From: an uncultured Aminicenantes bacterium
GTDB taxonomy: Bacteria > Acidobacteriota > Aminicenantia > UBA2199
DNA length: 64,000 nt
Direction: 5' to 3'
Assembly (NCBI GenBank): GCA_965195285.1
Contig: CBDAFS010000040.1
Location: 1 to 64,000 of the forward strand
Below are positions 25,180 through 37,798 of the stretch, piece after piece. The notes below the pieces were generated by a model, which saw only the letters and a program-made list of their open reading frames with translations, was not told the DNA's origin and did not search any database. The position numbers and the translations under genes are program-made. Positions within the stretch are counted from its first letter, which is position 1. Every line of letters starts with the position of its first letter.

Positions 25180-27597
25180 TTACAAATCCCCATATTTCTC
25201 CAACCGTTCTTCATAAATCTCCTTTGCATTCGCCACGATTTTTTGAAACCGGGGATCATCCCGCAAATTGTCATAGTGAGGATTATTAATCAAGTATAGA
25301 TAATTATATGCATCTTTACTTTTCTTCAGGGACTTTTGCATCATTGCAATGGCCTTGTCCTGCATTCCCAGCAATGAATAGACACGGGATGATTGCGTTT
25401 TTTGGGCAAGCGCTTTCTTCTTCTCCCCTCTGGCGGCAAACAAAATGGCCTTTTGTGCTTTAGTAGATCTAAAACGCATCTTTCCTTTCTCCAATTTGTC
25501 TATATACTCTTCGGCTTTATCATAATTTTTCACCCTCAGGTAATGTATGCAGTACAGCCTGATCAAATTGGTTTGACCAGGGAAAAATTCGGATGCTTTT
25601 TTGAGATACCGGACAGATTGGCTATAATTTCTCAAATAAATGAAGCTTCTGGCTATGGTGGTATAAGGGAGCAGGAGAAGCGGGTCAAGCTCGATTGCTC
25701 TGGTGCAGTATTTTAGGGCCTGGTGATATAAACCCATCCGATGATAATAAAAGCCTGTTGTAAAATTCAATATTGCACTATTGGGAGCTTTTTGCAGGGC
25801 TTTTTTAAATTCAATATATGCCAGGTCATATTTTTTCATCATGGCATAACTGTGGCCAATACCCCCCCAATAACCTTCAGATGAATCCGGAGCCAATTCT
25901 CTTGCTTTTCTGGCGAATTTTAAGGCCAGATTAAAATAATTAATATCTCGTGTCACAATATAATGGTTTCCATAGGCCCAGGATAATCCGCTGTAGGCCC
26001 TGGCATAATCGGGATCAATCTCCAGAGCTTTTTTAAACATCTTCACAACAGCATCTAAGACCTTATCGTTCATATCCAGGTAAAACCGGTTGTTGAATAT
26101 ATGCATGGCCTTGAGGTAATATTCATAGGCCCGGGTGTTTTTTGTTTGCCCCTCCATCATTGATTTTAAAGCTTCCGGTGTAAATGTCACCTTCAGGGAC
26201 TGGGCAATGGCTTTGGCCACTTCGTCCTGAACAGTAAAAATATCTTCCAGCTTGCGGTCATAATTTTTGGCCCACAGGTGGGCATCATCCGCCACCCTTA
26301 TCAACTGGGCGGTAATCCGGATCCGGTTTTTATCCTTTCTCACGCTGCCCTCCAGCACATTTTCCACTGCCAGCTGCCGGCCGATTTCCATAATGCTTTT
26401 TTCACTGTTTTTAAATCTCATCACCGAAGTGCGGGAAATCACCTTCAGATCATTGATAGTAGTAAGCTTGGTGATGATCTCCTCGGTCATTCCGTCGCAG
26501 AAATATTCCTGCTCTTTGTCGGCACTTATATTGGTGAAAGGGAGAACCGCAATGGAGTTTTTCCATTTTGAGTCAAAGATTTTTCCTTCGATAGATTTTT
26601 CCTGAACAACTGTTTTCTCAGGTTTTGGTTTTTCCTTTAAAAACAAATAACCGGCCACAACAAGAACAGCCAGTAATATGAAACCCATCCATATGAATGG
26701 GTTTTGGGGGAGTCCTCTTTTTTTCACCACAACACCTGTTTTTGGATCTTTGGTTGCTTTTTCCGATTTTTTTATTAAATTCTTCAAATCAACTATCATA
26801 TCGGCAACATTCTGATATCTGGCAGAAATATCTTTGTTCAATGTTTTATTGACGATTCTCTCCAGTTCCCGGGGAACGCCTGTGCGCAATCCGGTGATCG
26901 GCTCGGGTTCTTCATTCATGATGGCGTACATCACAGCCTGTTCATATTCACCTTTAAAAGGTAACTGCCCGGTAATCATTTCGTAAAGTAATACCCCCAG
27001 GGACCAGATGTCGGAACGGTGATCGACTTTGTCTCCAGAGGCCTGCTCGGGTGACATGTAGGCAACGGTTCCCAGGGTGGTTCCCTCTTTGGTAAGCTTG
27101 GTAATCCCTCTCAGTTTGGCCAGGCCGAAATCGAGGATTTTAACCACCCCTTCTTCGGTTATAATAATATTGGCTGATTTGATGTCACGGTGGACGATCT
27201 CTTTTTGATGGGCTTTGTTGAGGCCTTCTGCTATCTGGATGGTGATATCAATGGCATCATTTAGAGGCAAGGGCGAACCGCCATTCGCCCCTACACCTGA
27301 TATTTTCTCATTTAATGTTTGCCCTTCATAGTATGCCATGGCAATGAACATCCGGCCCTCTTCGGTTTCATCGATTTCAAAAATATTACAGATATTGGGA
27401 TGGTCCAGGGCAGCAGCTGCCTTGGCCTCATGGATGAAGCGTTTTTTTTCTTCTTTATTGATGTTGATATGAGTGGGAAGAAATTTTAAGGCCACAGTTC
27501 TATCCAGCTTCGTATCCAGCGCCTTGTAAACCACTCCCATACCCCCGGCACCAATCTCCTGAAGTATTTTGTAGTGTGATATCGTTTTTCCAATCAT
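25180..27597 (-). CDS. Hanks-type Ser/Thr protein kinase with TM, TolB-N/CsgG-like domain and TPRs
   Basis: GAGGMGVVY, ALK, HRDIKSAN, DFGLA, YMSPE; SIAVLPF...LEGSVR; TPR helices. Confidence 0.92.
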   Translation of the reverse strand: MIGKTISHYKILQEIGAGGMGVVYKALDTKLDRTVALKFLPTHININKEEKKRFIHEAKAAAALDHPNICNIFEIDETEEGRMFIAMAYYEGQTLNEKISGVGANGGSPLPLNDAIDITIQIAEGLNKAHQKEIVHRDIKSANIIITEEGVVKILDFGLAKLRGITKLTKEGTTLGTVAYMSPEQASGDKVDHRSDIWSLGVLLYEMITGQLPFKGEYEQAVMYAIMNEEPEPITGLRTGVPRELERIVNKTLNKDISARYQNVADMIVDLKNLIKKSEKATKDPKTGVVVKKRGLPQNPFIWMGFILLAVLVVAGYLFLKEKPKPEKTVVQEKSIEGKIFDSKWKNSIAVLPFTNISADKEQEYFCDGMTEEIITKLTTINDLKVISRTSVMRFKNSEKSIMEIGRQLAVENVLEGSVRKDKNRIRITAQLIRVADDAHLWAKNYDRKLEDIFTVQDEVAKAIAQSLKVTFTPEALKSMMEGQTKNTRAYEYYLKAMHIFNNRFYLDMNDKVLDAVVKMFKKALEIDPDYARAYSGLSWAYGNHYIVTRDINYFNLALKFARKARELAPDSSEGYWGGIGHSYAMMKKYDLAYIEFKKALQKAPNSAILNFTTGFYYHRMGLYHQALKYCTRAIELDPLLLLPYTTIARSFIYLRNYSQSVRYLKKASEFFPGQTNLIRLYCIHYLRVKNYDKAEEYIDKLEKGKMRFRSTKAQKAILFAARGEKKKALAQKTQSSRVYSLLGMQDKAIAMMQKSLKKSKDAYNYLYLINNPHYDNLRDDPRFQKIVANAKEIYEERLEKYGDL
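27271..27294 (-). repeat. GTAG-type REP-like palindrome embedded in frame in the kinase gene
   Basis: Minus strand GTAG-GGGCGAA-TGGCGG-TTCGCCC, encoding VGANGGSP. Confidence 0.7.
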
Positions 27598-29818: not shown

Positions 29819-30877
29819 TTACCTGCGCCTTTTCAAAATATTGTATCCGGAATGGGAATGAACATGCCCACCCAACATATGGATTTGCCATAAATCCTGA
29901 CTCTTCACGTGCAGAAACGGGGCCAGTATCCGTTTTCCGGTTTTACCGATATTCAGTTCAAGTTGCTTCAATTCCATGAGTTTATTTTTTACTGCATCAT
30001 CCTGAGCCACTTTGAAACCGGCCTCATGCATCAACAGCGTACCTTTTGCCTTCAGGGCCAGTTCCACTGAAATCTGCAGATAACACAGCATATCTGCCAG
30101 AACCTCTCCGGGCACCCGGTTTTTCAGGGAAACCAGATATTGACCGATCCTGGATTCCAGTACTGCCCCGGACCGGATCATCTGAAGTAATTCCACATCA
30201 GATACGAAACCCACATCCAGCCACTTCTGGAGCAACTTTTCGCTGCGTTCAAAGACAATAATGAGGGCCAGCGGCAGAATGATTAAAATCACTACGGTCG
30301 AGAGCAATGGGTTAAGCAAAAAATGGTTGAAAACAGAATGGATGGCCATGGCCATTCCCAGCCCGGGTAAGTAGTGATAGAGTTTTTCCACCTGTCGACG
30401 TTCTATAAAATTTTTAGAAAAAATCCCCACGATTGCAGTCGTTCCACCATGCATAATGGCTGTGCCGAATCCCCGTATGATCCAGAGCAAAAGATTGGGA
30501 TCTCCCAGGGTATAGAGATAATGAATGTTTTCAACTGCTGCAAATCCGGCACCAATGGAAAACCCAAAGATCGCTGCATCGACCATAAATCCAATTCGCT
30601 TGGTCTTGAGCAAATAAATTAGGTAAAGTGCTTTAAAAAATTCTTCCAGAACGGGCGCCAGATAACGACTGAATTGAAGCAGGCTGATTTGAAATGTCCT
30701 CAACAGGAATCCGTTCAAAATCAGGCAAAAAACCGCAACCAGGCCGCCCACTCCAATGGCCACCAATACGGAACGTAATTTCAACAGTTTGTAACTGTCC
30801 AGAAAAATCAGGGTAATCAAAAAGGCAAAAACCGGTAATAAACTGACAATAACCTTCACCACTACCAGCATGGTCAC
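29819..30877 (-). CDS. PrsW-family intramembrane glutamic/metalloprotease with a C-terminal soluble extension
   Basis: About 7 TMs; LEEFFK (EExxK), GFAAVEN, AIMHG and AIHSVFN motifs. Confidence 0.85.
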   Translation of the reverse strand: MTMLVVVKVIVSLLPVFAFLITLIFLDSYKLLKLRSVLVAIGVGGLVAVFCLILNGFLLRTFQISLLQFSRYLAPVLEEFFKALYLIYLLKTKRIGFMVDAAIFGFSIGAGFAAVENIHYLYTLGDPNLLLWIIRGFGTAIMHGGTTAIVGIFSKNFIERRQVEKLYHYLPGLGMAMAIHSVFNHFLLNPLLSTVVILIILPLALIIVFERSEKLLQKWLDVGFVSDVELLQMIRSGAVLESRIGQYLVSLKNRVPGEVLADMLCYLQISVELALKAKGTLLMHEAGFKVAQDDAVKNKLMELKQLELNIGKTGKRILAPFLHVKSQDLWQIHMLGGHVHSHSGYNILKRRR

Positions 30878-30884
30878 TGGCTTG

Positions 30885-33857
30885 TTAAAGAATTTTCAAC
30901 GATATCATCCACTCATCCGTATCATCCTGATCCGCTTCAAAAGCCCGGGCATAACCCAGGGAAAGGGTGATCTGATGATTTGATAGAATCATGAAACGAA
31001 TATCAATTTGAAGACCGATATCCAGCAATTCCCTCCGATAAGCTTCATCATCCATGTTGGTCACTAAAGCGGTTGAAAAGACTGAAATAGAAGCCCAGTT
31101 GGTATAAAAGGATGAAAAACCCAGCCGCCTGAACAAGATGGGTGGAAGCGTCCATTCCAACATCAATTTGCCATAGTTGGTTCCCCCGACTCCATTCAGG
31201 TCAATACCCGGGAAACTGTAATATTTTCGGTACCGGCTGAAATCCTGGTGGTCAATCCAGTTGTTGCCAAAACCTCCGAAATAAAAATTGGCAAACGATT
31301 CTTCCCGATCCCCCCAGGCATAACCCAGGGAACCCCGAAGCCAGATAGCCGAATGGTGAAGGGGCAGGGGAAAACCCAGATCGAGATTGGTATATACCCG
31401 GGGGAAAAATTGACTATCGGCATAAAAAGCGGTCAGGTAGGTTTCCCATAAAAAACCCTTTTCATAATCCACTGCTCCCAGGGATGCTCTTAAATTTTTG
31501 TAATTGAGATTTAAGCTCAAGTAATAGAAATCAGTGAAAGTGGTTTCAACATTCTGAAATTGGGGCATCTCTTCCAGCCCGAAATAACCGGCCAGTTTAA
31601 CCCCCAGGTCCAAAATTCTGGGTTCATCAAATATCAGACTTTTTTGATACAGCAATTCTATTGAATCTCCCTTACGGCTGGTTTTGGTAGGGCCGAACAG
31701 ATCATAGAAATCAGCTTTGTTATGGGAGGCACTTAATTTCCAGTTGGAAATCCCCAGATTGAGACCGAGATGCCATCGTTCATACTGAGTAAGATCAGCA
31801 TCCGGAGTGTAAGAGACGGTAAAATCCAGGGTATTCAGGGGAATAGAGTCAGAGAGATTGAAACGGACACCATAGGCCAGGTAATTCTTGTACCCTTCAA
31901 CAACCGGGTATACAGATCTGAATTTAAAGTCCTTCAGAATATGGTATTTGCCTCTATAGGTAGTGCAGGACTCCAGGTCTACAATTGAAGGTGCTGGCGC
32001 CTGCCAATCCTTGAGCTGAGGATGGTTGTCCAAAACGGTTTGGCCCAGAAATTGAATGGATTTTACGGTTTCAAGGGGTTTGTTTTCAATGATAACCGGG
32101 ATAAAGCCGCTCGATGTGTAGCGAAAAGCCAGCACCGATTCATCTGAAATCGGGACCGGCCTGAACAAACCGGTTTCACAATTACTGATAATGTGAATAT
32201 CATCTTTATCCAGATCATAACGGTAAATATTGGACACTCCAGAATAGTAAGAGGAACCCCAAAGATGTTTTCCGTCCGGGGAAAAAACAAAATTGGCCGG
32301 GGAAAAATTTCCAAAATCGTAAAGCGTTTCATATTCAGGTTCTCCGTCCATCATGGTTTGGGTATCCATTTTAATCAATAACTGTTTTCCGGTCACACTG
32401 GTAAGCGCTCCGATGATCTTTTTTCCGTCCGGCGAGATATCAATATCATAAAGATCAACCCCATAAGGCCAGGAAAACATCTGATTCCACTCCCGATAGG
32501 GATAGGGAATTCGCACCAGGGTTGAGATGCCCAGATAATGCCGAACCCCCCAGAGGGATCGATCGGCCCGATTAAAGGCCAGATCGCCCACCCGGCAATC
32601 TTTCATCAGTATGGTTGACCGCTTGCTTTTCAGATCTACTTTTTTCAAATCACGCCAGTAGCTATTATCAGTGGTATAGAAAAGAGTGGCTGAATCAGGA
32701 TCATAGGCCAGTGAGGTCACAAAGAAGAGGTCCGGCCCCTTGAGGTTACAAATCGTCTTCATTTTCCCTGAACGAATATTCATGGCAGCTATATGGGCCA
32801 CCTGGCCCGGGTAGTTCACCCCAACATAGATTTTCTCCTCCCGGGTATCATAAAATGCCCTGGATACATACCCCAAGCGCTTTTCGGTAATCACCTTCTG
32901 AGAAGAGTAGGGGACCTGTCCAAGCCGTTGCAGGTTTTCTAACTGATATTGCTTTTCCCACTGGATCCATTCCGACCAGGCTTCATTCAGGGATAAACCA
33001 TAGGTTTTTTTAAACTGTTTGGAAAAGTAGGCCTTGCTATCCCTTGATCGTGAAACCCATTTGATGACACTTTCGGGACCATAGCGGTTGGCCAGGTAAC
33101 TGAAAAACCGGGTGCCGTACAGATAGGCATTCACACCCACCTGAAAATTCTTCTTGGTGGCTTCGGACTGTAATCCCACCTGGTCATGCAAATCCACCTG
33201 CTCATGAATCAAGCTTCTAAAGGCCATTTCATCGTAGGCTCCCAGCGCCCTCCCCAATCCGCCGGTCATCCAGGTCTCCATGAATACCGCAATCCCTTCG
33301 TGAAACCATCTGGGGGCAAAATCCCGTGGTGAAGTTAAATAACCGTACAATAATGACAAAGGATTATCGGCTGTGGGTGCCACTTTTCCAAAAAATATTT
33401 TTCGATAAAATTTGTCCGATTTGGTGGCCTGATCGCTGGCCAGCACATGAACCAGTTCATGATTCATCATCCAATTCATCCGTTCGTTTCCCAGTATGAT
33501 CTCAAAAACATAATTAAAAGGGGCAATGGACACAAACATCCGGTTGTTGGGTACAGCTGAGGTTCCGGCATTACCAAAATCAGAAAAATCATGAAGAACA
33601 ACCGTAATTTTTTCCGTGGGTTTGTAATCAAAGATTTTCATATGCTGGGCCAGTGAATTCTCAAAACATCGGGCCACATGGGATACCAAATAGGCATGGG
33701 CTTCCCCGAAATAGATCAAGCGAAGGTTTTTTGTTTCAATGGATTGAAAACGGGAGTAAACAGGATGGCTAATAAAAAAAATCGAAAGAAAAATAAATAT
33801 AATCAAAACGCTGATTTTTTTAATTTTCTCCTCCTCTTTAGAAAAGCACAATACCAT
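30885..33857 (-). CDS. Secreted/outer-membrane protein: gluzincin-type Zn peptidase, TolB-like beta-propeller and probable C-terminal beta-barrel
   Basis: Signal peptide; NHELVH plus PRWFHEGIA; two SPDGK propeller motifs; alternating beta-strands at the C-terminus. Real start may be ATT 33824. Confidence 0.7.
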   Translation of the reverse strand: MVLCFSKEEEKIKKISVLIIFIFLSIFFISHPVYSRFQSIETKNLRLIYFGEAHAYLVSHVARCFENSLAQHMKIFDYKPTEKITVVLHDFSDFGNAGTSAVPNNRMFVSIAPFNYVFEIILGNERMNWMMNHELVHVLASDQATKSDKFYRKIFFGKVAPTADNPLSLLYGYLTSPRDFAPRWFHEGIAVFMETWMTGGLGRALGAYDEMAFRSLIHEQVDLHDQVGLQSEATKKNFQVGVNAYLYGTRFFSYLANRYGPESVIKWVSRSRDSKAYFSKQFKKTYGLSLNEAWSEWIQWEKQYQLENLQRLGQVPYSSQKVITEKRLGYVSRAFYDTREEKIYVGVNYPGQVAHIAAMNIRSGKMKTICNLKGPDLFFVTSLAYDPDSATLFYTTDNSYWRDLKKVDLKSKRSTILMKDCRVGDLAFNRADRSLWGVRHYLGISTLVRIPYPYREWNQMFSWPYGVDLYDIDISPDGKKIIGALTSVTGKQLLIKMDTQTMMDGEPEYETLYDFGNFSPANFVFSPDGKHLWGSSYYSGVSNIYRYDLDKDDIHIISNCETGLFRPVPISDESVLAFRYTSSGFIPVIIENKPLETVKSIQFLGQTVLDNHPQLKDWQAPAPSIVDLESCTTYRGKYHILKDFKFRSVYPVVEGYKNYLAYGVRFNLSDSIPLNTLDFTVSYTPDADLTQYERWHLGLNLGISNWKLSASHNKADFYDLFGPTKTSRKGDSIELLYQKSLIFDEPRILDLGVKLAGYFGLEEMPQFQNVETTFTDFYYLSLNLNYKNLRASLGAVDYEKGFLWETYLTAFYADSQFFPRVYTNLDLGFPLPLHHSAIWLRGSLGYAWGDREESFANFYFGGFGNNWIDHQDFSRYRKYYSFPGIDLNGVGGTNYGKLMLEWTLPPILFRRLGFSSFYTNWASISVFSTALVTNMDDEAYRRELLDIGLQIDIRFMILSNHQITLSLGYARAFEADQDDTDEWMISLKIL

Positions 33858-33889
33858 TTCCTCCCCAGTTGGGGAGAAAATGGTATTGT
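33848..33889 (-). terminator. 19-bp stem-loop between the repeat gene and the OM-protein gene (terminator, attenuator or mRNA stabiliser)
   Basis: mRNA ACAAUACCAUUUUCUCCCC-AACU-GGGGAGGAAAUGGUAUUGU (one G-U pair), followed by GCUUUUCU. Confidence 0.75.
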
Positions 33890-33903
33890 ATCGATTGATC
33901 GTT

Positions 33904-36243
33904 TTATTTGATCAGTGCTTCTCTGGACAGTGCTTTTCTGAAACTGTCGTGACTGATGGCCCTTCTGAATGAATCCTGGGAGATGGCCTTGAGAAAAGGC
34001 TCGCTGAACAGGGCCCGTCTCAAAACCTCATGTGACATGGCCTTTCGCATGGATTCACTGAAAAATGCCCTTCTGAGCGGCTCCCTGGACAGGGCACTCC
34101 GCATGGTATCACTGAAAAATGCCTCTCTCAAAACTCCACTGGACAAAGCATTTCTCATGGTTTCACTGAAGAAAGCCTGACGTAAAATCCCATTGCCAAT
34201 GGCTTTCCTGAAAGTCTCACTGGACAAAGCTCTGAGCAGTGTTTTATTCTCAAATGCTTTCCTTAAACCGGCATCCCGGGAGATGGCCTTCAAGAATTGA
34301 CCGTCTCCGGCTATGGCCTTTCGGAACACTTCATGATCGGCAACCGCTTTCACAAAAGCTTGATTCGAGAATGCTTTTCTCAGCGGTTCACTGAAGAGTG
34401 CTCTTTTCAGGGGTTGGTCCATCAGGGCTTTGCGAAAAGCCTCCTGGTTCAGCGCTCTCATAAAGGGCCCCGAAAACATGGCTTTTCTCATTGCCTGGTC
34501 GCCGATAGCCTTTCTAAATGATTCTCCAAACAGGATATTCCGCATGGATTCCATTTCAATTGCCCGGCGGAAAGACTTACAGGCCAGTGCCCGGAGTAAG
34601 GTTTTATTGCCCAGAGCCCGGCGTAAGGTTTCATCGCTTCCCATGGCCCGGATCAATCCGTCATGTTTGGATATGGCTTTTCTCAGGGCAACCTCACTGG
34701 TCAGGGCCCGGCGGAAAACATCACTGTTAAAGGCTTTGGCCAAGGTCTCGCTGAAAAAGGCTTTATGTAAAGCCTCATCCGCAAATGCCTTTCGACAGGC
34801 TTCACCAAACAGAGCTTTTCTTAAGGGTTGATCAGCCATTGCCCTTCTCATGGGTTGGCTGCACAGGGCTTTCAGCATGACCTCATTATTCAGGGCTTTG
34901 CGCAAGGCCGGATCATTGGCCATGGCTTTTTGCAACCCGTCATGTCCGGAAACAAAATTCCGCAATGCATTCTGATTACCCAGTGCTTTGCGGAAAGATG
35001 CATCCATCATGGCCTTTTTCAAGGGCTCTCCGAATAGGGCTTTTCTTAAATTTTCTCTGGCCAGTGCTTCCTTGAAAGGTCCGTGAAAAAGGGCTTTTCT
35101 GAATTCATCCGCTTCCAGAGCCCTACGCAGGCTTTCATGGGAAAATGCCTTGAGAAAGATTTCGCTATTGACAGCCTTCGTGAGATTATCATCCCTGACC
35201 ATGGCCTTTTTCAAGACCTCATTTAAAGCAATGGCCTTACGAAATGCCTCACGACCGGACATGGCCTTACGAAATGCCTCTCCTGATAAGGCCTCTCTGA
35301 CCGGCTTACTGAAAATGGCTTTACGTAACACATCATCAGCCATGGCCCGATAAAAGGGTTCGCTGAATAAGGCCTCCCTCAATATATCATGAGACAGAGC
35401 CTTCATCAGGGTTTCATTGGAAAGGGCTTTGCGAAGGGATTCGTCATGCAAGGCCTTTCGCACGGAATGGCTGGACAACGCTTTCAATAAAACATCCTGG
35501 TCAAATGCCCGGCGCAATTCCGGGTCTTTGGAGAAAGCTTTTTGTAAGCTTTCATCACCGGAGATGGCTTTGCGCAGCGCTTCATGATTTCCCAACGCCT
35601 GGCGAAACACATCTCTTGCCAATGCTGCCTTAAGGGGTTCGCAAAAAAGGGCTTTTCTCAACACCTCATCGGACAAAGCCTGGCGGAAAGGTTCATTAAA
35701 AATGGCCTTGCGCAATTCATCATTAAAAATTGCCATGCGAAAAGACTCACTGTTCATGGCTTTGCGAAATCCCTCATCAGACATGGCCTTTCTGAAGCTG
35801 TTACTCATCATGGCCCGGCGCATACTCTTATGAGAAACGGCTCTCCGCAACGCTTCTCCAAACAGAGCCTTCCTCACCGTTTCATTTTCCATGGCCGCAA
35901 TAAAATCCTTACTGTTGATCAACGCCTGGATTTGATCATTCTGCAACAGGGTTTGAGTTTGGGAATCACTGAGAACCACATCTGCTGGACTCAGCTGATC
36001 AGCTTGATACCGTTGGGCTTGCTCCACACCACCGATTGTCGCACTGGTTTCTTGTCCATCAGGCCAGGGGAAAAAAAGTCCAAAATAGCCAATTAAAATG
36101 ATGGCTGCTACAGCGCCTCCCAATAACCACTTCCTGGTACTTGATTTACTCATTTCGTCCTCCTTAATACTGATTTTTAATTTATATTGAATCTCATCCA
36201 CCTTGCTTCGATAATACTTTTTGAGGCTTTTCTCAGGTCTCAT
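33904..36243 (-). CDS. Single-TM protein with ~72 tandem 9/10-aa amphipathic helical repeats; possible anti-sigma or exported structural subunit
   Basis: TM WLLGGAVAAIILIGYFGLFF, then a ~55-aa non-repeat segment, then (F/L/M)-R-K-A-(L/I/F/M) repeats; SD-led ATGs at both 36243 and 36153. Confidence 0.85.
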   Translation of the reverse strand: MRPEKSLKKYYRSKVDEIQYKLKISIKEDEMSKSSTRKWLLGGAVAAIILIGYFGLFFPWPDGQETSATIGGVEQAQRYQADQLSPADVVLSDSQTQTLLQNDQIQALINSKDFIAAMENETVRKALFGEALRRAVSHKSMRRAMMSNSFRKAMSDEGFRKAMNSESFRMAIFNDELRKAIFNEPFRQALSDEVLRKALFCEPLKAALARDVFRQALGNHEALRKAISGDESLQKAFSKDPELRRAFDQDVLLKALSSHSVRKALHDESLRKALSNETLMKALSHDILREALFSEPFYRAMADDVLRKAIFSKPVREALSGEAFRKAMSGREAFRKAIALNEVLKKAMVRDDNLTKAVNSEIFLKAFSHESLRRALEADEFRKALFHGPFKEALARENLRKALFGEPLKKAMMDASFRKALGNQNALRNFVSGHDGLQKAMANDPALRKALNNEVMLKALCSQPMRRAMADQPLRKALFGEACRKAFADEALHKAFFSETLAKAFNSDVFRRALTSEVALRKAISKHDGLIRAMGSDETLRRALGNKTLLRALACKSFRRAIEMESMRNILFGESFRKAIGDQAMRKAMFSGPFMRALNQEAFRKALMDQPLKRALFSEPLRKAFSNQAFVKAVADHEVFRKAIAGDGQFLKAISRDAGLRKAFENKTLLRALSSETFRKAIGNGILRQAFFSETMRNALSSGVLREAFFSDTMRSALSREPLRRAFFSESMRKAMSHEVLRRALFSEPFLKAISQDSFRRAISHDSFRKALSREALIK
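33907..35904 (-). repeat. Coding tandem repeat array, 27/30-nt period, diverged at DNA level
   Basis: Hand parse gives 57 nonamers plus 15 decamers; one exact 20-nt duplicate ATGGCCTTACGAAATGCCTC at 35231 and 35261. Confidence 0.9.
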
Positions 36244-36265
36244 GTTGAAGCTCCTTTCGATTATA

Positions 36266-36292
36266 TAGACGAGTGAATAAAAAAAATGGTGA
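36266..36292 (-). promoter_or_regulatory. Putative ECF-type promoter for the repeat-protein operon
   Basis: TCACC-16 nt-CGTCTA between the sigma stop and the SD of ATG 36243. Confidence 0.5.
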
Positions 36293-36300
36293 AAAAAAGA

Positions 36301-36864
36301 TTAAAAACTCAAATCTTTACTCAGGTTTTTTCTGATCAGGCGGACCTTGGATTTGACCGTATTGACATTGAGGTTCAAAATCCGGCTGATGTCTTTATAT
36401 CTCATGTTCTCAAAGAACCGTAAATAGGAAATCTCTCTTTCCGTCTCATCCAGCTTACTCAGACAATGATCAATTTTCTCCAGCAGATCCTGTTCGATGA
36501 CAATCTTTTCCGGTGTTCGCAAATCCAGAACTTTTTCAATTTCGATTCCACCGGTATTAATAGAATTTTCTTTTCTGCTTTTCAAAAAATCAATACAGTG
36601 ATTTCTGGCAATTCGATAAATCCAGGCTTTAAATGAATGCAAAGGATTGAAGGTGTTCAGGTTTTTATAAATTTTAATCATGACTTCCTGAAAGATATCA
36701 TCAAAGGAAGGATGATTAAAGGGGATCAGATTGGAAATATAAAAACCAATTTTCTGATGGTAATGATACCAAATGAACTGAAATAATTTAGATTTTTCCT
36801 TTTCTCCGAAAGAAGAGCCGATGAAGACATAAAATCGTTCATAAAACTCTTGAACTTTATCCAT
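36301..36864 (-). CDS. ECF RNA polymerase sigma factor
   Basis: DDIFQEVMIK, FKAWIYRIARNHCID, YKDISRIL...NTVKSKV. Confidence 0.9.
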   Translation of the reverse strand: MDKVQEFYERFYVFIGSSFGEKEKSKLFQFIWYHYHQKIGFYISNLIPFNHPSFDDIFQEVMIKIYKNLNTFNPLHSFKAWIYRIARNHCIDFLKSRKENSINTGGIEIEKVLDLRTPEKIVIEQDLLEKIDHCLSKLDETEREISYLRFFENMRYKDISRILNLNVNTVKSKVRLIRKNLSKDLSF

Positions 36865-37027
36865 GAAGGTTTAGGTTAGAATTGAGTGAAAGGAATCCTG
36901 GTTTCCCACCTTTTTCATCCTCTCAGACATCTTGCCTGTTAGAAACTATAATCATTGGCAAAAAAAAAGTCAAGCTTTTCATATTAATTATTTATTCGAC
37001 TTTTGCTATAATGACATTGTCATTTAT

Positions 37028-37444
37028 ATGCAGGTAAAAAAAAGTATAAAACTGAAAAACAGTTTTTCAGAAATAAAAAAACTGAATGAATTTCTCAGGA
37101 AATTTCTTCAGCATCATTCCCTTAACATTCTCAACCATCAGGACATTCAGCTTTCTCTGGAAGAGATATTTAACAATATTTTATTATATGCCTATCAAGA
37201 CAGGCAGATCCATGAAATCAGCTTTCAATTCAATTTGGAAAACAAGGTCTTGTGGATTTGCATTGAAGATGATGGCATTCCTTTCAATCTGCTCAAGGTA
37301 AAGGAACCCGAATTAACCACACCTCTTCAGGAACGACAGGTGGGAGGTTTGGGTATTCATTTGATTCGGTCTTTAATGGATGAGATCTCTTATCAAAGAA
37401 AAAACAATAAAAATATATTAATCATAAAAAAAGATATAAATTGA
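37028..37444 (+). CDS. Anti-sigma factor/serine kinase (RsbW-like HATPase)
   Basis: LEEIFNNILLYAY, EDDGIPF, GGLGIHLI; start moved to MQVKK. Confidence 0.88.
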   Translation: MQVKKSIKLKNSFSEIKKLNEFLRKFLQHHSLNILNHQDIQLSLEEIFNNILLYAYQDRQIHEISFQFNLENKVLWICIEDDGIPFNLLKVKEPELTTPLQERQVGGLGIHLIRSLMDEISYQRKNNKNILIIKKDIN

Positions 37445-37459
37445 TAAAATGGGGGTAAT

Positions 37460-37798
37460 ATGCAAATAAAAGAAGAAAAAATCGGGTCAGTACTTGTATT
37501 ATCTGTTTCCGGCAGAGTGGAAATGCTCACCTCACCCCAGCTGAAAGAAAATATTGTCAACCACATCAATATCGGAGAACATCAGCTGCTATTCGATCTC
37601 TCCGAGCTTGATTACATCAGCAGCCCGGGCCTGGGTATACTGCTGTATGCAGCCAAATTACTACAGGAAAAAAAGGGAAAAATGGACTTATGCGCTTTGA
37701 AACCCCATATTTTTGAAGTTTTTAAAATCTGCGGTTTTGACAAGGTTCTCCCCATTTTTCAGACCCGGGAGGAAGCCCTCAAGGCATTTGACCGGTAA
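37460..37798 (+). CDS. STAS-domain anti-sigma factor antagonist
   Basis: FDLSELDYISSPGLG; follows the RsbW-like gene. Confidence 0.9.
   Translation: MQIKEEKIGSVLVLSVSGRVEMLTSPQLKENIVNHINIGEHQLLFDLSELDYISSPGLGILLYAAKLLQEKKGKMDLCALKPHIFEVFKICGFDKVLPIFQTREEALKAFDR

Follow-up and report, generated by a model that had tools for sequence, protein, structure and literature searches.

A stretch of 64,000 nucleotides from an uncultured marine-sediment bacterium, a member of Candidatus Aminicenantes in the Acidobacteriota (assembly GCA_965195285.1, contig CBDAFS010000040.1, positions 1 to 64,000; "the window" hereafter means this whole stretch) encodes on its reverse strand a 779-residue protein ending in 72 tandem units of nine or ten residues, and the question raised by the locus is what such an array does. 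The gene lies between the one for a sigma factor of the extracytoplasmic function (ECF) type and the one for a 990-residue protein, here called P990, with a PrsW-family protease encoded behind them. Here, we suggest, with a probability of about 0.5 for the whole chain, that in an RsiW/PrsW-like sigma factor pathway the array serves as a sensor or tether domain that lies in the periplasm and is gated by proteolysis, with P990 as an obligate partner. This suggestion builds on the family to which the protein belongs, the operon in which it is encoded and the selection acting on its repeats.

The repeat protein and its family

The open reading frame (ORF) of the gene and the parts of its protein are given below in the order of the chain.

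33904..36243, reverse strand: repeat protein gene (P0001), 779 aa
36130..36243, reverse strand: N-terminal stub, residues 1-38, predicted cytoplasmic; basic and hydrophilic, not an anti-sigma domain
36070..36129, reverse strand: single transmembrane helix, residues 39-58, WLLGGAVAAIILIGYFGLFF, a hydrophobic stretch
35905..36069, reverse strand: juxtamembrane module, residues 59-113, TIGGVEQAQRYQADQ...DVVLSD...LLQNDQIQ, non-repetitive, from the family alignment
33916..35904, reverse strand: 72-unit array, residues 114-776; 57 nonamers and 15 decamers; net charge +48, pI 10.4
35518..35607, reverse strand: decamer triplet T1, residues 213-242, from the unit parse
35185..35274, reverse strand: decamer triplet T2, residues 324-353, from the unit parse
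34906..34995, reverse strand: decamer triplet T3, residues 417-446, at the middle of a layout that is nearly symmetric
34627..34716, reverse strand: decamer triplet T4, residues 510-539, from the unit parse
34267..34356, reverse strand: decamer triplet T5, residues 630-659, from the unit parse

By the positive-inside rule, the basic residues before the membrane helix and the acidic ones after it point to an N-in/C-out topology, and the array would then form the entire extracytoplasmic (periplasmic) part of a single-pass inner-membrane protein.

An exhaustive HMMER search recovered the family to which this protein belongs, which has 494 representatives at E<=1e-3, of which 137 also reach E<=1e-10; it superseded a word-indexed search of proteins of similar length, in which none of 8000 scored candidates reached E<=1e-3. 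A period of nine over at least 45 residues was present in 108 of the 151 family-search proteins. Typical members comprise 270-450 residues, namely about 100 N-terminal residues, one membrane helix, a module with the consensus GTIGGVEKAxKYxAxQIxxxDVxLxDxExQxLLQND, and 9-residue repeats up to the C-terminus, which the array reaches in all ten homologs measured. In an alignment of 22 sequences, Q, Q and D of the module never vary, and T, G, A, D, V and Q hardly do. Relatives come from Aminicenantes, other Acidobacteriota, Calditrichaceae and Gemmatimonadota, and the module profile matches 29 of 301 sampled genomes of the phylum. Neither the module nor the repeat is covered by any model in Pfam or NCBIfam; database entries of the family are named "hypothetical protein", as are the nearest ESM Atlas clusters. 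We regard the family membership of the window protein, together with its gene context, as near certain.

Repeat-driven searches of this kind also return look-alikes. Long eukaryote-like proteins of 9- or 10-residue repeats (P0005, P0008, P0018, P0025 and others) were set aside because they resemble the query in periodicity and have neither membrane helix nor module. Eukaryote-like proteins with perfect repeats reached E 1e-33 against the query by periodicity alone, a warning for homology searches driven by repeats.

The regulatory affiliation of the family comes from its N-terminal part. A profile of 103 members searched against the Protein Data Bank (PDB) matched the solved anti-sigma domain of RsiW (5wuq_C, E 9.5e-7) and, more weakly, RskA (E 0.033); zf-HC2 was present in 8 of the 103 members, and matches to anti-sigma models of NCBIfam were weak. 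Among the 90 members in which both membrane helix and module could be located, the stretch before the helix spans at least 60 residues in 71 and at most 45 in 14, the window protein included. Given the RsiW match and these long N-termini, we interpret the family as RsiW-like anti-sigma proteins with a new kind of ectodomain. Full-length members would thus combine an RsiW-homologous anti-sigma domain, a membrane helix, the module and a tail made purely of 9-residue units, and the window protein appears to have lost the anti-sigma domain. Its short N-terminus is not featureless, as the motif M-x-x-E/K-K-x-L-K-K-Y-Y-x-x-K is kept in all five short-type homologs that were aligned.

A conserved operon with P990 and PrsW

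On the same strand, the ECF sigma factor gene, the repeat gene and the genes of P990 and PrsW follow one another with gaps of 57, 46 and 7 nt, and a partner-switch set of RsbW, STAS and SpoIIE type surrounds them.

36301..36864, reverse strand: ECF sigma factor gene; Sigma70_r2 4e-13, Sigma70_r4_2 1e-12, TIGR02937 6e-27
30885..33857, reverse strand: P990, 990-aa secreted protein with HExxH and a weak propeller signal, 46 nt downstream of the repeat gene
29819..30877, reverse strand: PrsW-family intramembrane metalloprotease; PF13367 4.9e-21; 7 nt after P990
28399..29703, reverse strand: GAF-SpoIIE (PP2C) phosphatase, in 8 of 11 loci
36932..37798, forward strand: divergent pair of RsbW-like kinase (HATPase_c_2) and STAS anti-anti-sigma factor, both in 10 of 11 loci

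We compared the cluster proteins by tblastn with 15 loci and took counts from the 11 independent loci with enough flanking sequence. L035 contained no member of the repeat family, and the L033 protein was left out of the counts. Loci with the conserved cluster belong to Aminicenantes, other Acidobacteriota, Calditrichaceae and Gemmatimonadota. The sigma factor gene adjoins the repeat gene in ten of the 11, P990 lies directly downstream of the repeat gene in all 11, and PrsW is likewise encoded in all 11, in nine of them directly after P990. The operon copy of PrsW is the only one in the genome above the Pfam cut-off, and the genome also encodes an S2P protease. Among the 301 genomes of the phylum, all 29 with a member of the repeat family also have P990, and in 25 of the 28 remaining after the window's own genome is left out, both are found within about 5 kb of each other on a single contig. 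A further 267 genomes have neither, and the five with P990 only comprise one fragment at a contig end and four weak partial paralogs; as the genomes are related, these counts overstate the independence of the co-occurrences.

P990 comprises about 1000 residues in its various homologs, which share 44-67% identity across phyla. The HExxH motif (H133, E134, H137) is invariant in ten of ten sequences, and glutamates downstream of it are conserved. Other signals comprise a weak PD40/TolB propeller and weak matches to BSP-peptidase and Omp85_2/porin models, each in one of the ten sequences, the Omp85-like signal being C-terminal. The assignments of peptidase, propeller and barrel are weak, and P990 is a putative protease. 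It has no Pfam family, and databases name it "hypothetical" or, wrongly, "AraC-like". P990 merits study as a family of its own.

Partner-switch sets usually control sigma factors of group 3. The conservation of the RsbW/STAS/SpoIIE set beside an ECF sigma factor in ten of 11 loci suggests a second layer of control on the sigma factor.

Two observations concern the sigma factor gene itself. Upstream of it lies a sigma-70-like promoter (TTGACT-N17-TATAGT, 36945-36973, reverse strand), and TTGACx-N17-TATAxT recurs at this position in six other loci (L003, L006, L007, L036, L032 and L038); no ECF-type promoter was noticed there, though no formal scan was made. Additionally, the first 25-50 residues or so of the sigma factor (FYxFIxSSFGExEK...) align solely in loci whose repeat protein is without an anti-sigma domain (L003, L007, L032, L036 and L038), and in loci of the long type the tblastn match begins at residues 24-56 of the sigma factor. 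This pattern may reflect co-variation or mere divergence.

Anatomy of the array

Units were delimited by a dynamic-programming parse starting at residue 114. The parse rendered the third triplet as 9+11+10, which we took as 10+10+10 to give the 57 nonamers and 15 decamers listed above. The layout is 11x9, 3x10, 9x9, 3x10, 7x9, 3x10, 7x9, 3x10, 10x9, 3x10 and 13x9, followed by a three-residue LIK tail. An earlier note, made by hand from this DNA, had described 72 units with decamers solely as five triplets and nonamer runs of 11, 9, 7, 7, 10 and 13, and the parse confirms that description; the chance of five separate triplets arising from 15 decamers among 72 units is 4e-9. The unit consensus is Phi-R-K-A-Phi-x-x-E-x, where Phi is a hydrophobic residue. 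Counts of the composition also agree with those first reported. All units except LRNFVSGHDG and MRNILFGES, hence 70 of 72, carry Ala at position 4, and the array contains four Cys, a single Tyr and no Trp; Gly accounts for 24 of 666 residues and dibasic pairs number 41. Within the nonamers of the window protein, S, N, D and H jointly occupy position 7 in 41 of 57, and Pro occupies position 9 in 13 of 57.

Above the level of the unit there are two further regularities. Behind every one of the five triplets, the nonamer that comes second (units 16, 28, 38, 48 and 61) has Leu in place of Arg at position 2, as the earlier note had seen; only six of the 57 nonamers have Leu there (hypergeometric P = 1.4e-6). 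The 18-residue alternation of A and B units that had been noticed by eye is equally real and keeps register with the triplets, with units at even offsets from a triplet following Phi-R-K-A-Phi-F-x-E-P/T at a mean pairwise identity of 0.47-0.63, compared with 0.23-0.40 for units at odd offsets. Pro often closes the A units and so reappears at 18-residue intervals in several stretches. The autocorrelation of residues reaches 0.272 at lag 9 and 0.293 at lag 18, whereas 2000 shuffles gave 0.081 +/- 0.011 (z = 18 at lag 9). It drops to 0.018 at lag 7, so the array lacks the heptad periodicity of an ordinary coiled coil; the earlier note had named such a coiled coil as a finding that would refute its reading.

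Conservation of the array across homologs

Orthologs in two congeneric genomes (94% and 71% identity) are colinear with the window protein and have the identical 72-unit layout. Relative to the 71% ortholog, the array and the N-terminal part each have a dN/dS of 0.10, and residues are conserved to 95% at position 4, 82% at positions 1, 2 and 5, and 54-63% at positions 6-9. Purifying selection acts on every unit of the array. DNA identity between units of the array averages just 0.50, which indicates that the array is old and its units individually constrained, not recently expanded.

Beyond the genus, homolog L007 (43% identity) has the layout 11-T-9-T-10-T-13, where T is a decamer triplet, and again shows a triplet, a nonamer and then an "LL/FL" nonamer. 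The gap in the global alignment of the two proteins, 57+129 = 186 residues, equals exactly two 93-residue super-repeats, and both layouts are nearly symmetric around the central triplet. In this clade the punctuation is a 48-residue module made of three decamers, a nonamer and a nonamer with Leu at position 2, which sets off super-repeats of 93-120 residues. The couple of A and B units, with the A unit often ended by Pro, also occurs in L036, from another genus of the same bacterial family, and isolated runs of three or four decamers occur in a few distant members (P0058, P0114 and P0135). Other homologs examined are pure nonamer arrays, often of near-identical units, and family arrays span about 22 to about 73 units. 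The comparison of unit counts among homologs proposed in the earlier note bears out its "length-tunable ruler" only by half: three species of the genus all have 72 units, and the nearest other homolog is shorter by two whole super-repeats. Overall, the count of units stays constant in the genus, shifts in steps of entire super-repeats from one genus to another, and lies anywhere between about 22 and about 73 in the family.

From 104 of 152 candidates, with ten proteins including the query left out, we derived the family consensus F-R-x-A-L-A-[S/N/D]-[D/P/E]-A, with frequencies of.48 for F,.50 for R,.66 for A4,.62 for L,.41 for A6,.82 for [S/N/D],.63 for [D/P/E] and.45 for A9, and with K in 9% at position 3. 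Units of relatives include NPNFQSVLA, NKDVLAALS and FAALLGDxx. The window array is the most cationic among the 90 members (+0.64 charge per nonamer, family median about 0), and together with the rarity of Lys at position 3 this marks its "RK" character as lineage-specific.

Predicted fold of the repeat unit

F1, A4 and L5 of the consensus form a hydrophobic face with i, i+3, i+4 spacing. Judging from the sequence pattern, each unit probably folds as an amphipathic helix that is short (about two turns) and N-capped, the S/N/D residue at position 7 providing the cap in a helix-turn fold. Such units would be kin to the D-P motifs of STI1/HOP and GerD proteins. The Pfam domain PF17830 (STI1/HOP DP) is matched by 35 of 103 members at E<=0.01, with a best E of 5.8e-17; in the same set UBQLN1 is matched by seven and GerD by four. 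The family profile also reaches GerD (4o8w, E 0.0031), the human HOP DP2 domain (7kw7_E, E 0.0051) and yeast Sti1 DP2 (2llw, E 0.011) in the PDB. The STI1 domain is described as a flexible five-helix hand with helix-breaking prolines that binds about 11 residues of a hydrophobic helix (PMC8010706), and GerD as a membrane-anchored, alpha-helical trimeric "superhelical rope" (PMC11841064).

The likeness has clear limits. STI1/HOP DP domains, including the STI1 domains of ubiquilin and the C-terminus of Sgt2, share with the array short amphipathic helices with D/N-P or S/N/D caps at a spacing of about nine residues, their hydrophobic residues gathered on one face, and the regularly spaced helix-starting D/N/S is found both in the family (82% at position 7) and in the window protein (the 41 of 57 given above, which include H). 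However, they are closed five-helix hands of about 55 residues in the eukaryotic cytosol, whereas here 22-73 units are strung together in what is predicted to be a bacterial periplasm. GerD, likewise helical and anchored to the membrane, sits at the inner membrane's outer face, but it is a small lipoprotein without a link to a sigma factor, and the window protein scores below the curated cut-offs of its models (PF17898, 24.1 against 29.5 bits; NF040801, 20.9 against 100). Since the matches are partial and the window protein itself has solely a summed UBQLN1 score and a sub-threshold GerD match, we call the array STI1/DP-like in kind and not a member of that family.

Several other matches were rejected. 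Whole-protein scores of the window protein to CT0912-like_C (34.8) and UBQLN1 (32.0 bits, cut-off 27), both above the Pfam cut-offs, contain no single stretch that passes alone and are sums of weak repeat matches, as are the matches of relatives to Plasmodium_HRP, RPN13_C, DUF826 and pb9, which do not indicate membership. Searches of the PDB with phmmer gave noise for the window protein (Imp4, E 0.32) and for a homolog of NPNF type, and HOP at E 0.073 as the best match for P0033. The motif of the RTX nonapeptide beta-roll, GGxGxDxUx, is rich in Gly and Asp. The array, with its low Gly content and its own consensus, has no such nonamer. The claim of the earlier note that this is a novel short-helix repeat with super-repeats therefore survives in part: the hierarchy is real and no characterised family confidently matches the window sequence, but the protein belongs to a large family, one that resembles STI1/HOP DP and GerD.

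A proposed protease-gated sensor or tether

In Bacillus subtilis, the extracytoplasmic part of RsiW is cut by PrsW, its site-1 protease (PMC3498285). The locus in the window resembles this sigma-W system in that an ECF sigma factor gene is followed by one for a single-pass membrane protein, the operon includes a gene for a PrsW-family protease, and the profile of the repeat family matches the RsiW domain. It differs in that the window protein has no anti-sigma domain, its ectodomain is a pure nonamer array, P990 and the RsbW/STAS/SpoIIE genes are present, and the host is a diderm, the uncultured Aminicenantes bacterium.

On this analogy, we propose the following sequence of events. The repeat gene would be co-transcribed with those of the sigma factor, P990 and PrsW. 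Its units would pair as 18-residue couples, and 48-residue modules would punctuate the blocks into super-repeats. At rest the array would stay uncut, perhaps with P990 holding it or with the array lying on the envelope; a signal from the envelope would then expose it to PrsW and/or P990, and cleavage would launch the sigma response much as PrsW does on RsiW. We put the gating of the array by proteolysis, taken as a step of its own, at slightly short of an even chance. Because the window protein has lost its anti-sigma domain, it may be linked to the sigma factor indirectly, for instance via the RsbW/STAS/SpoIIE genes.

A number of results weigh against this proposal. The 38-residue stub scores below zero against the N-terminal (anti-sigma) profile of the long type, aligning solely in an M-S/T-K-K segment just ahead of the membrane helix; with no match to an anti-sigma domain, direct binding of the sigma factor by the window protein is unsupported. 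Protease activity of P990 is suggested only by its motif and by the one weak BSP-peptidase match in ten sequences. As for the fold, the matches of the family profile to GerD, HOP and Sti1 structures are marginal, and PF17830 matches span positions 1-30 of a 55-position profile and pass solely as sums (three of ten tabulated members exceed 29.1 bits, again as sums only), while the Pfam scan of the window protein gave no PF17830 match at E<=0.1. The window protein has no entry in the ESM Atlas; the model there of homolog P0019 is of poor quality (pLDDT 0.58, pTM 0.41), and no structural neighbour of it exceeds TM 0.3. Furthermore, Pro and Gly are almost absent from the arrays of L008, L010, L032 and L037 (0-0.6% Pro), and the conserved acid at position 8 might pair with the base at position 2 or 3 of the unit that follows, in i+3/i+4 salt bridges that span the border between units; these two features would suit long continuous helices. 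At the other end of the range, the L009 array contains 10% Pro.

Rival readings

A stiff array instead of a flexible one is an unlikely alternative that partly overlaps the sensor reading, the two differing in stiff spacer versus flexible sensor. Here, the array would be a rigid rod or "ruler", either an alpha-solenoid or an antiparallel hairpin turning at the central triplet, which bridges the periplasm between the inner membrane and P990, itself in or at the outer membrane, and takes part in trans-envelope signalling of FecA/FecR/FecI type, its length being set in whole super-repeats. The identical unit layout in three species down to 71% identity, the exact difference of two 93-residue super-repeats from L007 with near-symmetry in both layouts, the selection on every unit and the constant C-terminal position of the array all fit a rod, as do the obligate co-occurrence with P990, whose weak Omp85_2/porin matches (1/10) were noted above, and the 18-residue period. 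Eighteen residues make five turns of an undistorted alpha-helix. However, a single periplasmic width is hard to reconcile with array lengths that vary more than threefold in the same operon context. Pro at position 9, which occurs in 13 of the 57 nonamers of the window protein and, in some relatives, in all units, and the low confidence of the P0019 model also speak against rigidity. The outer-membrane location of P990 is putative. As for the Fec analogy, both systems combine an ECF sigma factor with a regulator that crosses the membrane once and has a periplasmic domain, and with a large partner protein that is perhaps in the outer membrane; the cluster here is without TonB-dependent receptor or FecR domain, and P990 has an HExxH motif and a propeller signal, its barrel being only hinted at.

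In its boldest form, which we consider doubtful, this reading would make the array the first of a class of alpha-solenoids or rods whose helical repeat (nine residues, paired to 18) is shorter than any other known, with quantised 93-residue super-repeats, and would have it serve as the periplasm-spanning arm of a trans-envelope signalling machine not described before. The machine would consist of the ECF sigma factor, the array protein, an outer-membrane-anchored P990 protease, PrsW and the partner-switch module, would occur in Acidobacteriota, Gemmatimonadota, Calditrichota and other phyla, and would have its signalling geometry set by array length and by the decamer "phase-shift" modules.

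Less likely still, the protein may act as an effector, namely a membrane-anchored periplasmic holdase or "sponge" whose STI1-like cationic helices bind hydrophobic or anionic molecules of the envelope, with the sigma factor controlling its production and with P990 and PrsW as clearance proteases. The missing anti-sigma domain, the separate RsbW/STAS/SpoIIE set beside the sigma factor gene in ten of 11 loci, the binding of hydrophobic helices by STI1 domains (PMC8010706) and the most cationic array of the 90 members (+0.64 per nonamer, pI 10.4) would all suit such a role. However, the RsiW-like N-terminal domain of 71 of the 90 members implies that the ancestral role was regulatory, and the conserved promoter upstream of the sigma factor gene looks housekeeping (TTGACx-N17-TATAxT), not ECF-type. 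A further comparison is with the tandem amphipathic helices of apolipoproteins, which are punctuated by Pro, as are several stretches of the window array, there at every 18 residues. Their period is 11/22 and not 18 (2x9), and a continuous helix of the present repeat would place hydrophobic residues on two opposite faces; we know of no lipid link of the nonamer array.

The earlier note had also considered a polyprotein cut at its RK/RR pairs into many short cationic amphipathic peptides, which the comparison with relatives renders very improbable. The 41 dibasic pairs, the strongly basic array and the two putative proteases encoded downstream are what such a precursor would show, but the dibasic pair is lineage-specific and no feature of the family, in which Lys is rare at position 3 and units such as NPNFQSVLA occur. 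The protein has an N-terminal membrane anchor instead of a leader peptide, its conserved cluster is without transporter or immunity genes, and products of nine residues would be very short. Moreover, positions 1, 4 and 5 and the exact order of units are conserved between species, with every unit under purifying selection. Seven proteins of the cluster gave no match to the anti-phage defence models of PADLOC, and the sole match of the type of ribosomally synthesised and post-translationally modified peptides, an NHLP leader, scored 20.8 bits against a cut-off of 50.9.

Authenticity and transcription

An independent contig from another study covers 33800-36400 with 15 substitutions and zero gaps. 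A second DNA run covers the stretch by two contigs, with about 10 nt (34833-34842) missing between them, and a third covers it in part; neither shows an indel. Metagenome runs with the array stretch or close variants come from marine sediment, sediment and cold seep in ten studies, with identity of at least 99% in runs X4, X7 and X10. With units averaging 0.50 DNA identity, collapse or expansion of the array by an assembler is unlikely. That the array is an artefact, that is, a misassembled or non-coding low-complexity stretch, as the proneness of repeats to assembly error and the absence of the exact window protein from a collection of 15 billion proteins might suggest, is refuted by the gap-free and indel-free contigs, the recovery in ten studies, the colinear orthologs with the same layout in two other genomes and the dN/dS of the array.

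Contigs from an RNA library cover 33932-34681 and 35302-36230 at an identity of at least 99%, which fits transcription of the repeat gene but does not prove it; the uncovered part between them, 34682-35301, carries no weight either way. A Shine-Dalgarno sequence, AAGGAG, lies about 8 nt ahead of its ATG. Two ORFs opposite the array, 34430-34831 (forward strand, 133 aa) and 35584-36096 (forward strand, 170 aa), appear to be by-products of its codon pattern and not genes.

Further features of the locus

Two further genes flank the cluster.

25180..27597, reverse strand: Ser/Thr protein kinase with TPR repeats; similar kinases at the cluster edge in L010, L032, L036 and L038
37810..40086, reverse strand: fused LptF-LptG permease, a single 758-aa ORF with two LptF/LptG matches

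Significance

Our search of the literature found no paper linking a nonamer-array protein, an ECF sigma factor, P990, PrsW and a partner switch. The main text of the ECF re-classification (PMC7826278) mentions neither PrsW nor STAS nor RsbW, and its supplements may list such a group. The locus thus brings to light an unannotated family that is common in environmental phyla, together with a conserved envelope-signalling cluster of six to eight genes around it. If the sensor reading holds, this cluster would put three layers of control on one ECF sigma factor, namely the RsiW-like protein, PrsW with P990, and the RsbW/STAS/SpoIIE switch. STI1/DP-like helical motifs, which occur in cytosolic co-chaperones of eukaryotes, would be extended here to long periplasmic arrays of bacteria, and the strict three-level repeat offers a natural test case for how larger architecture may be built from very short helical repeats.

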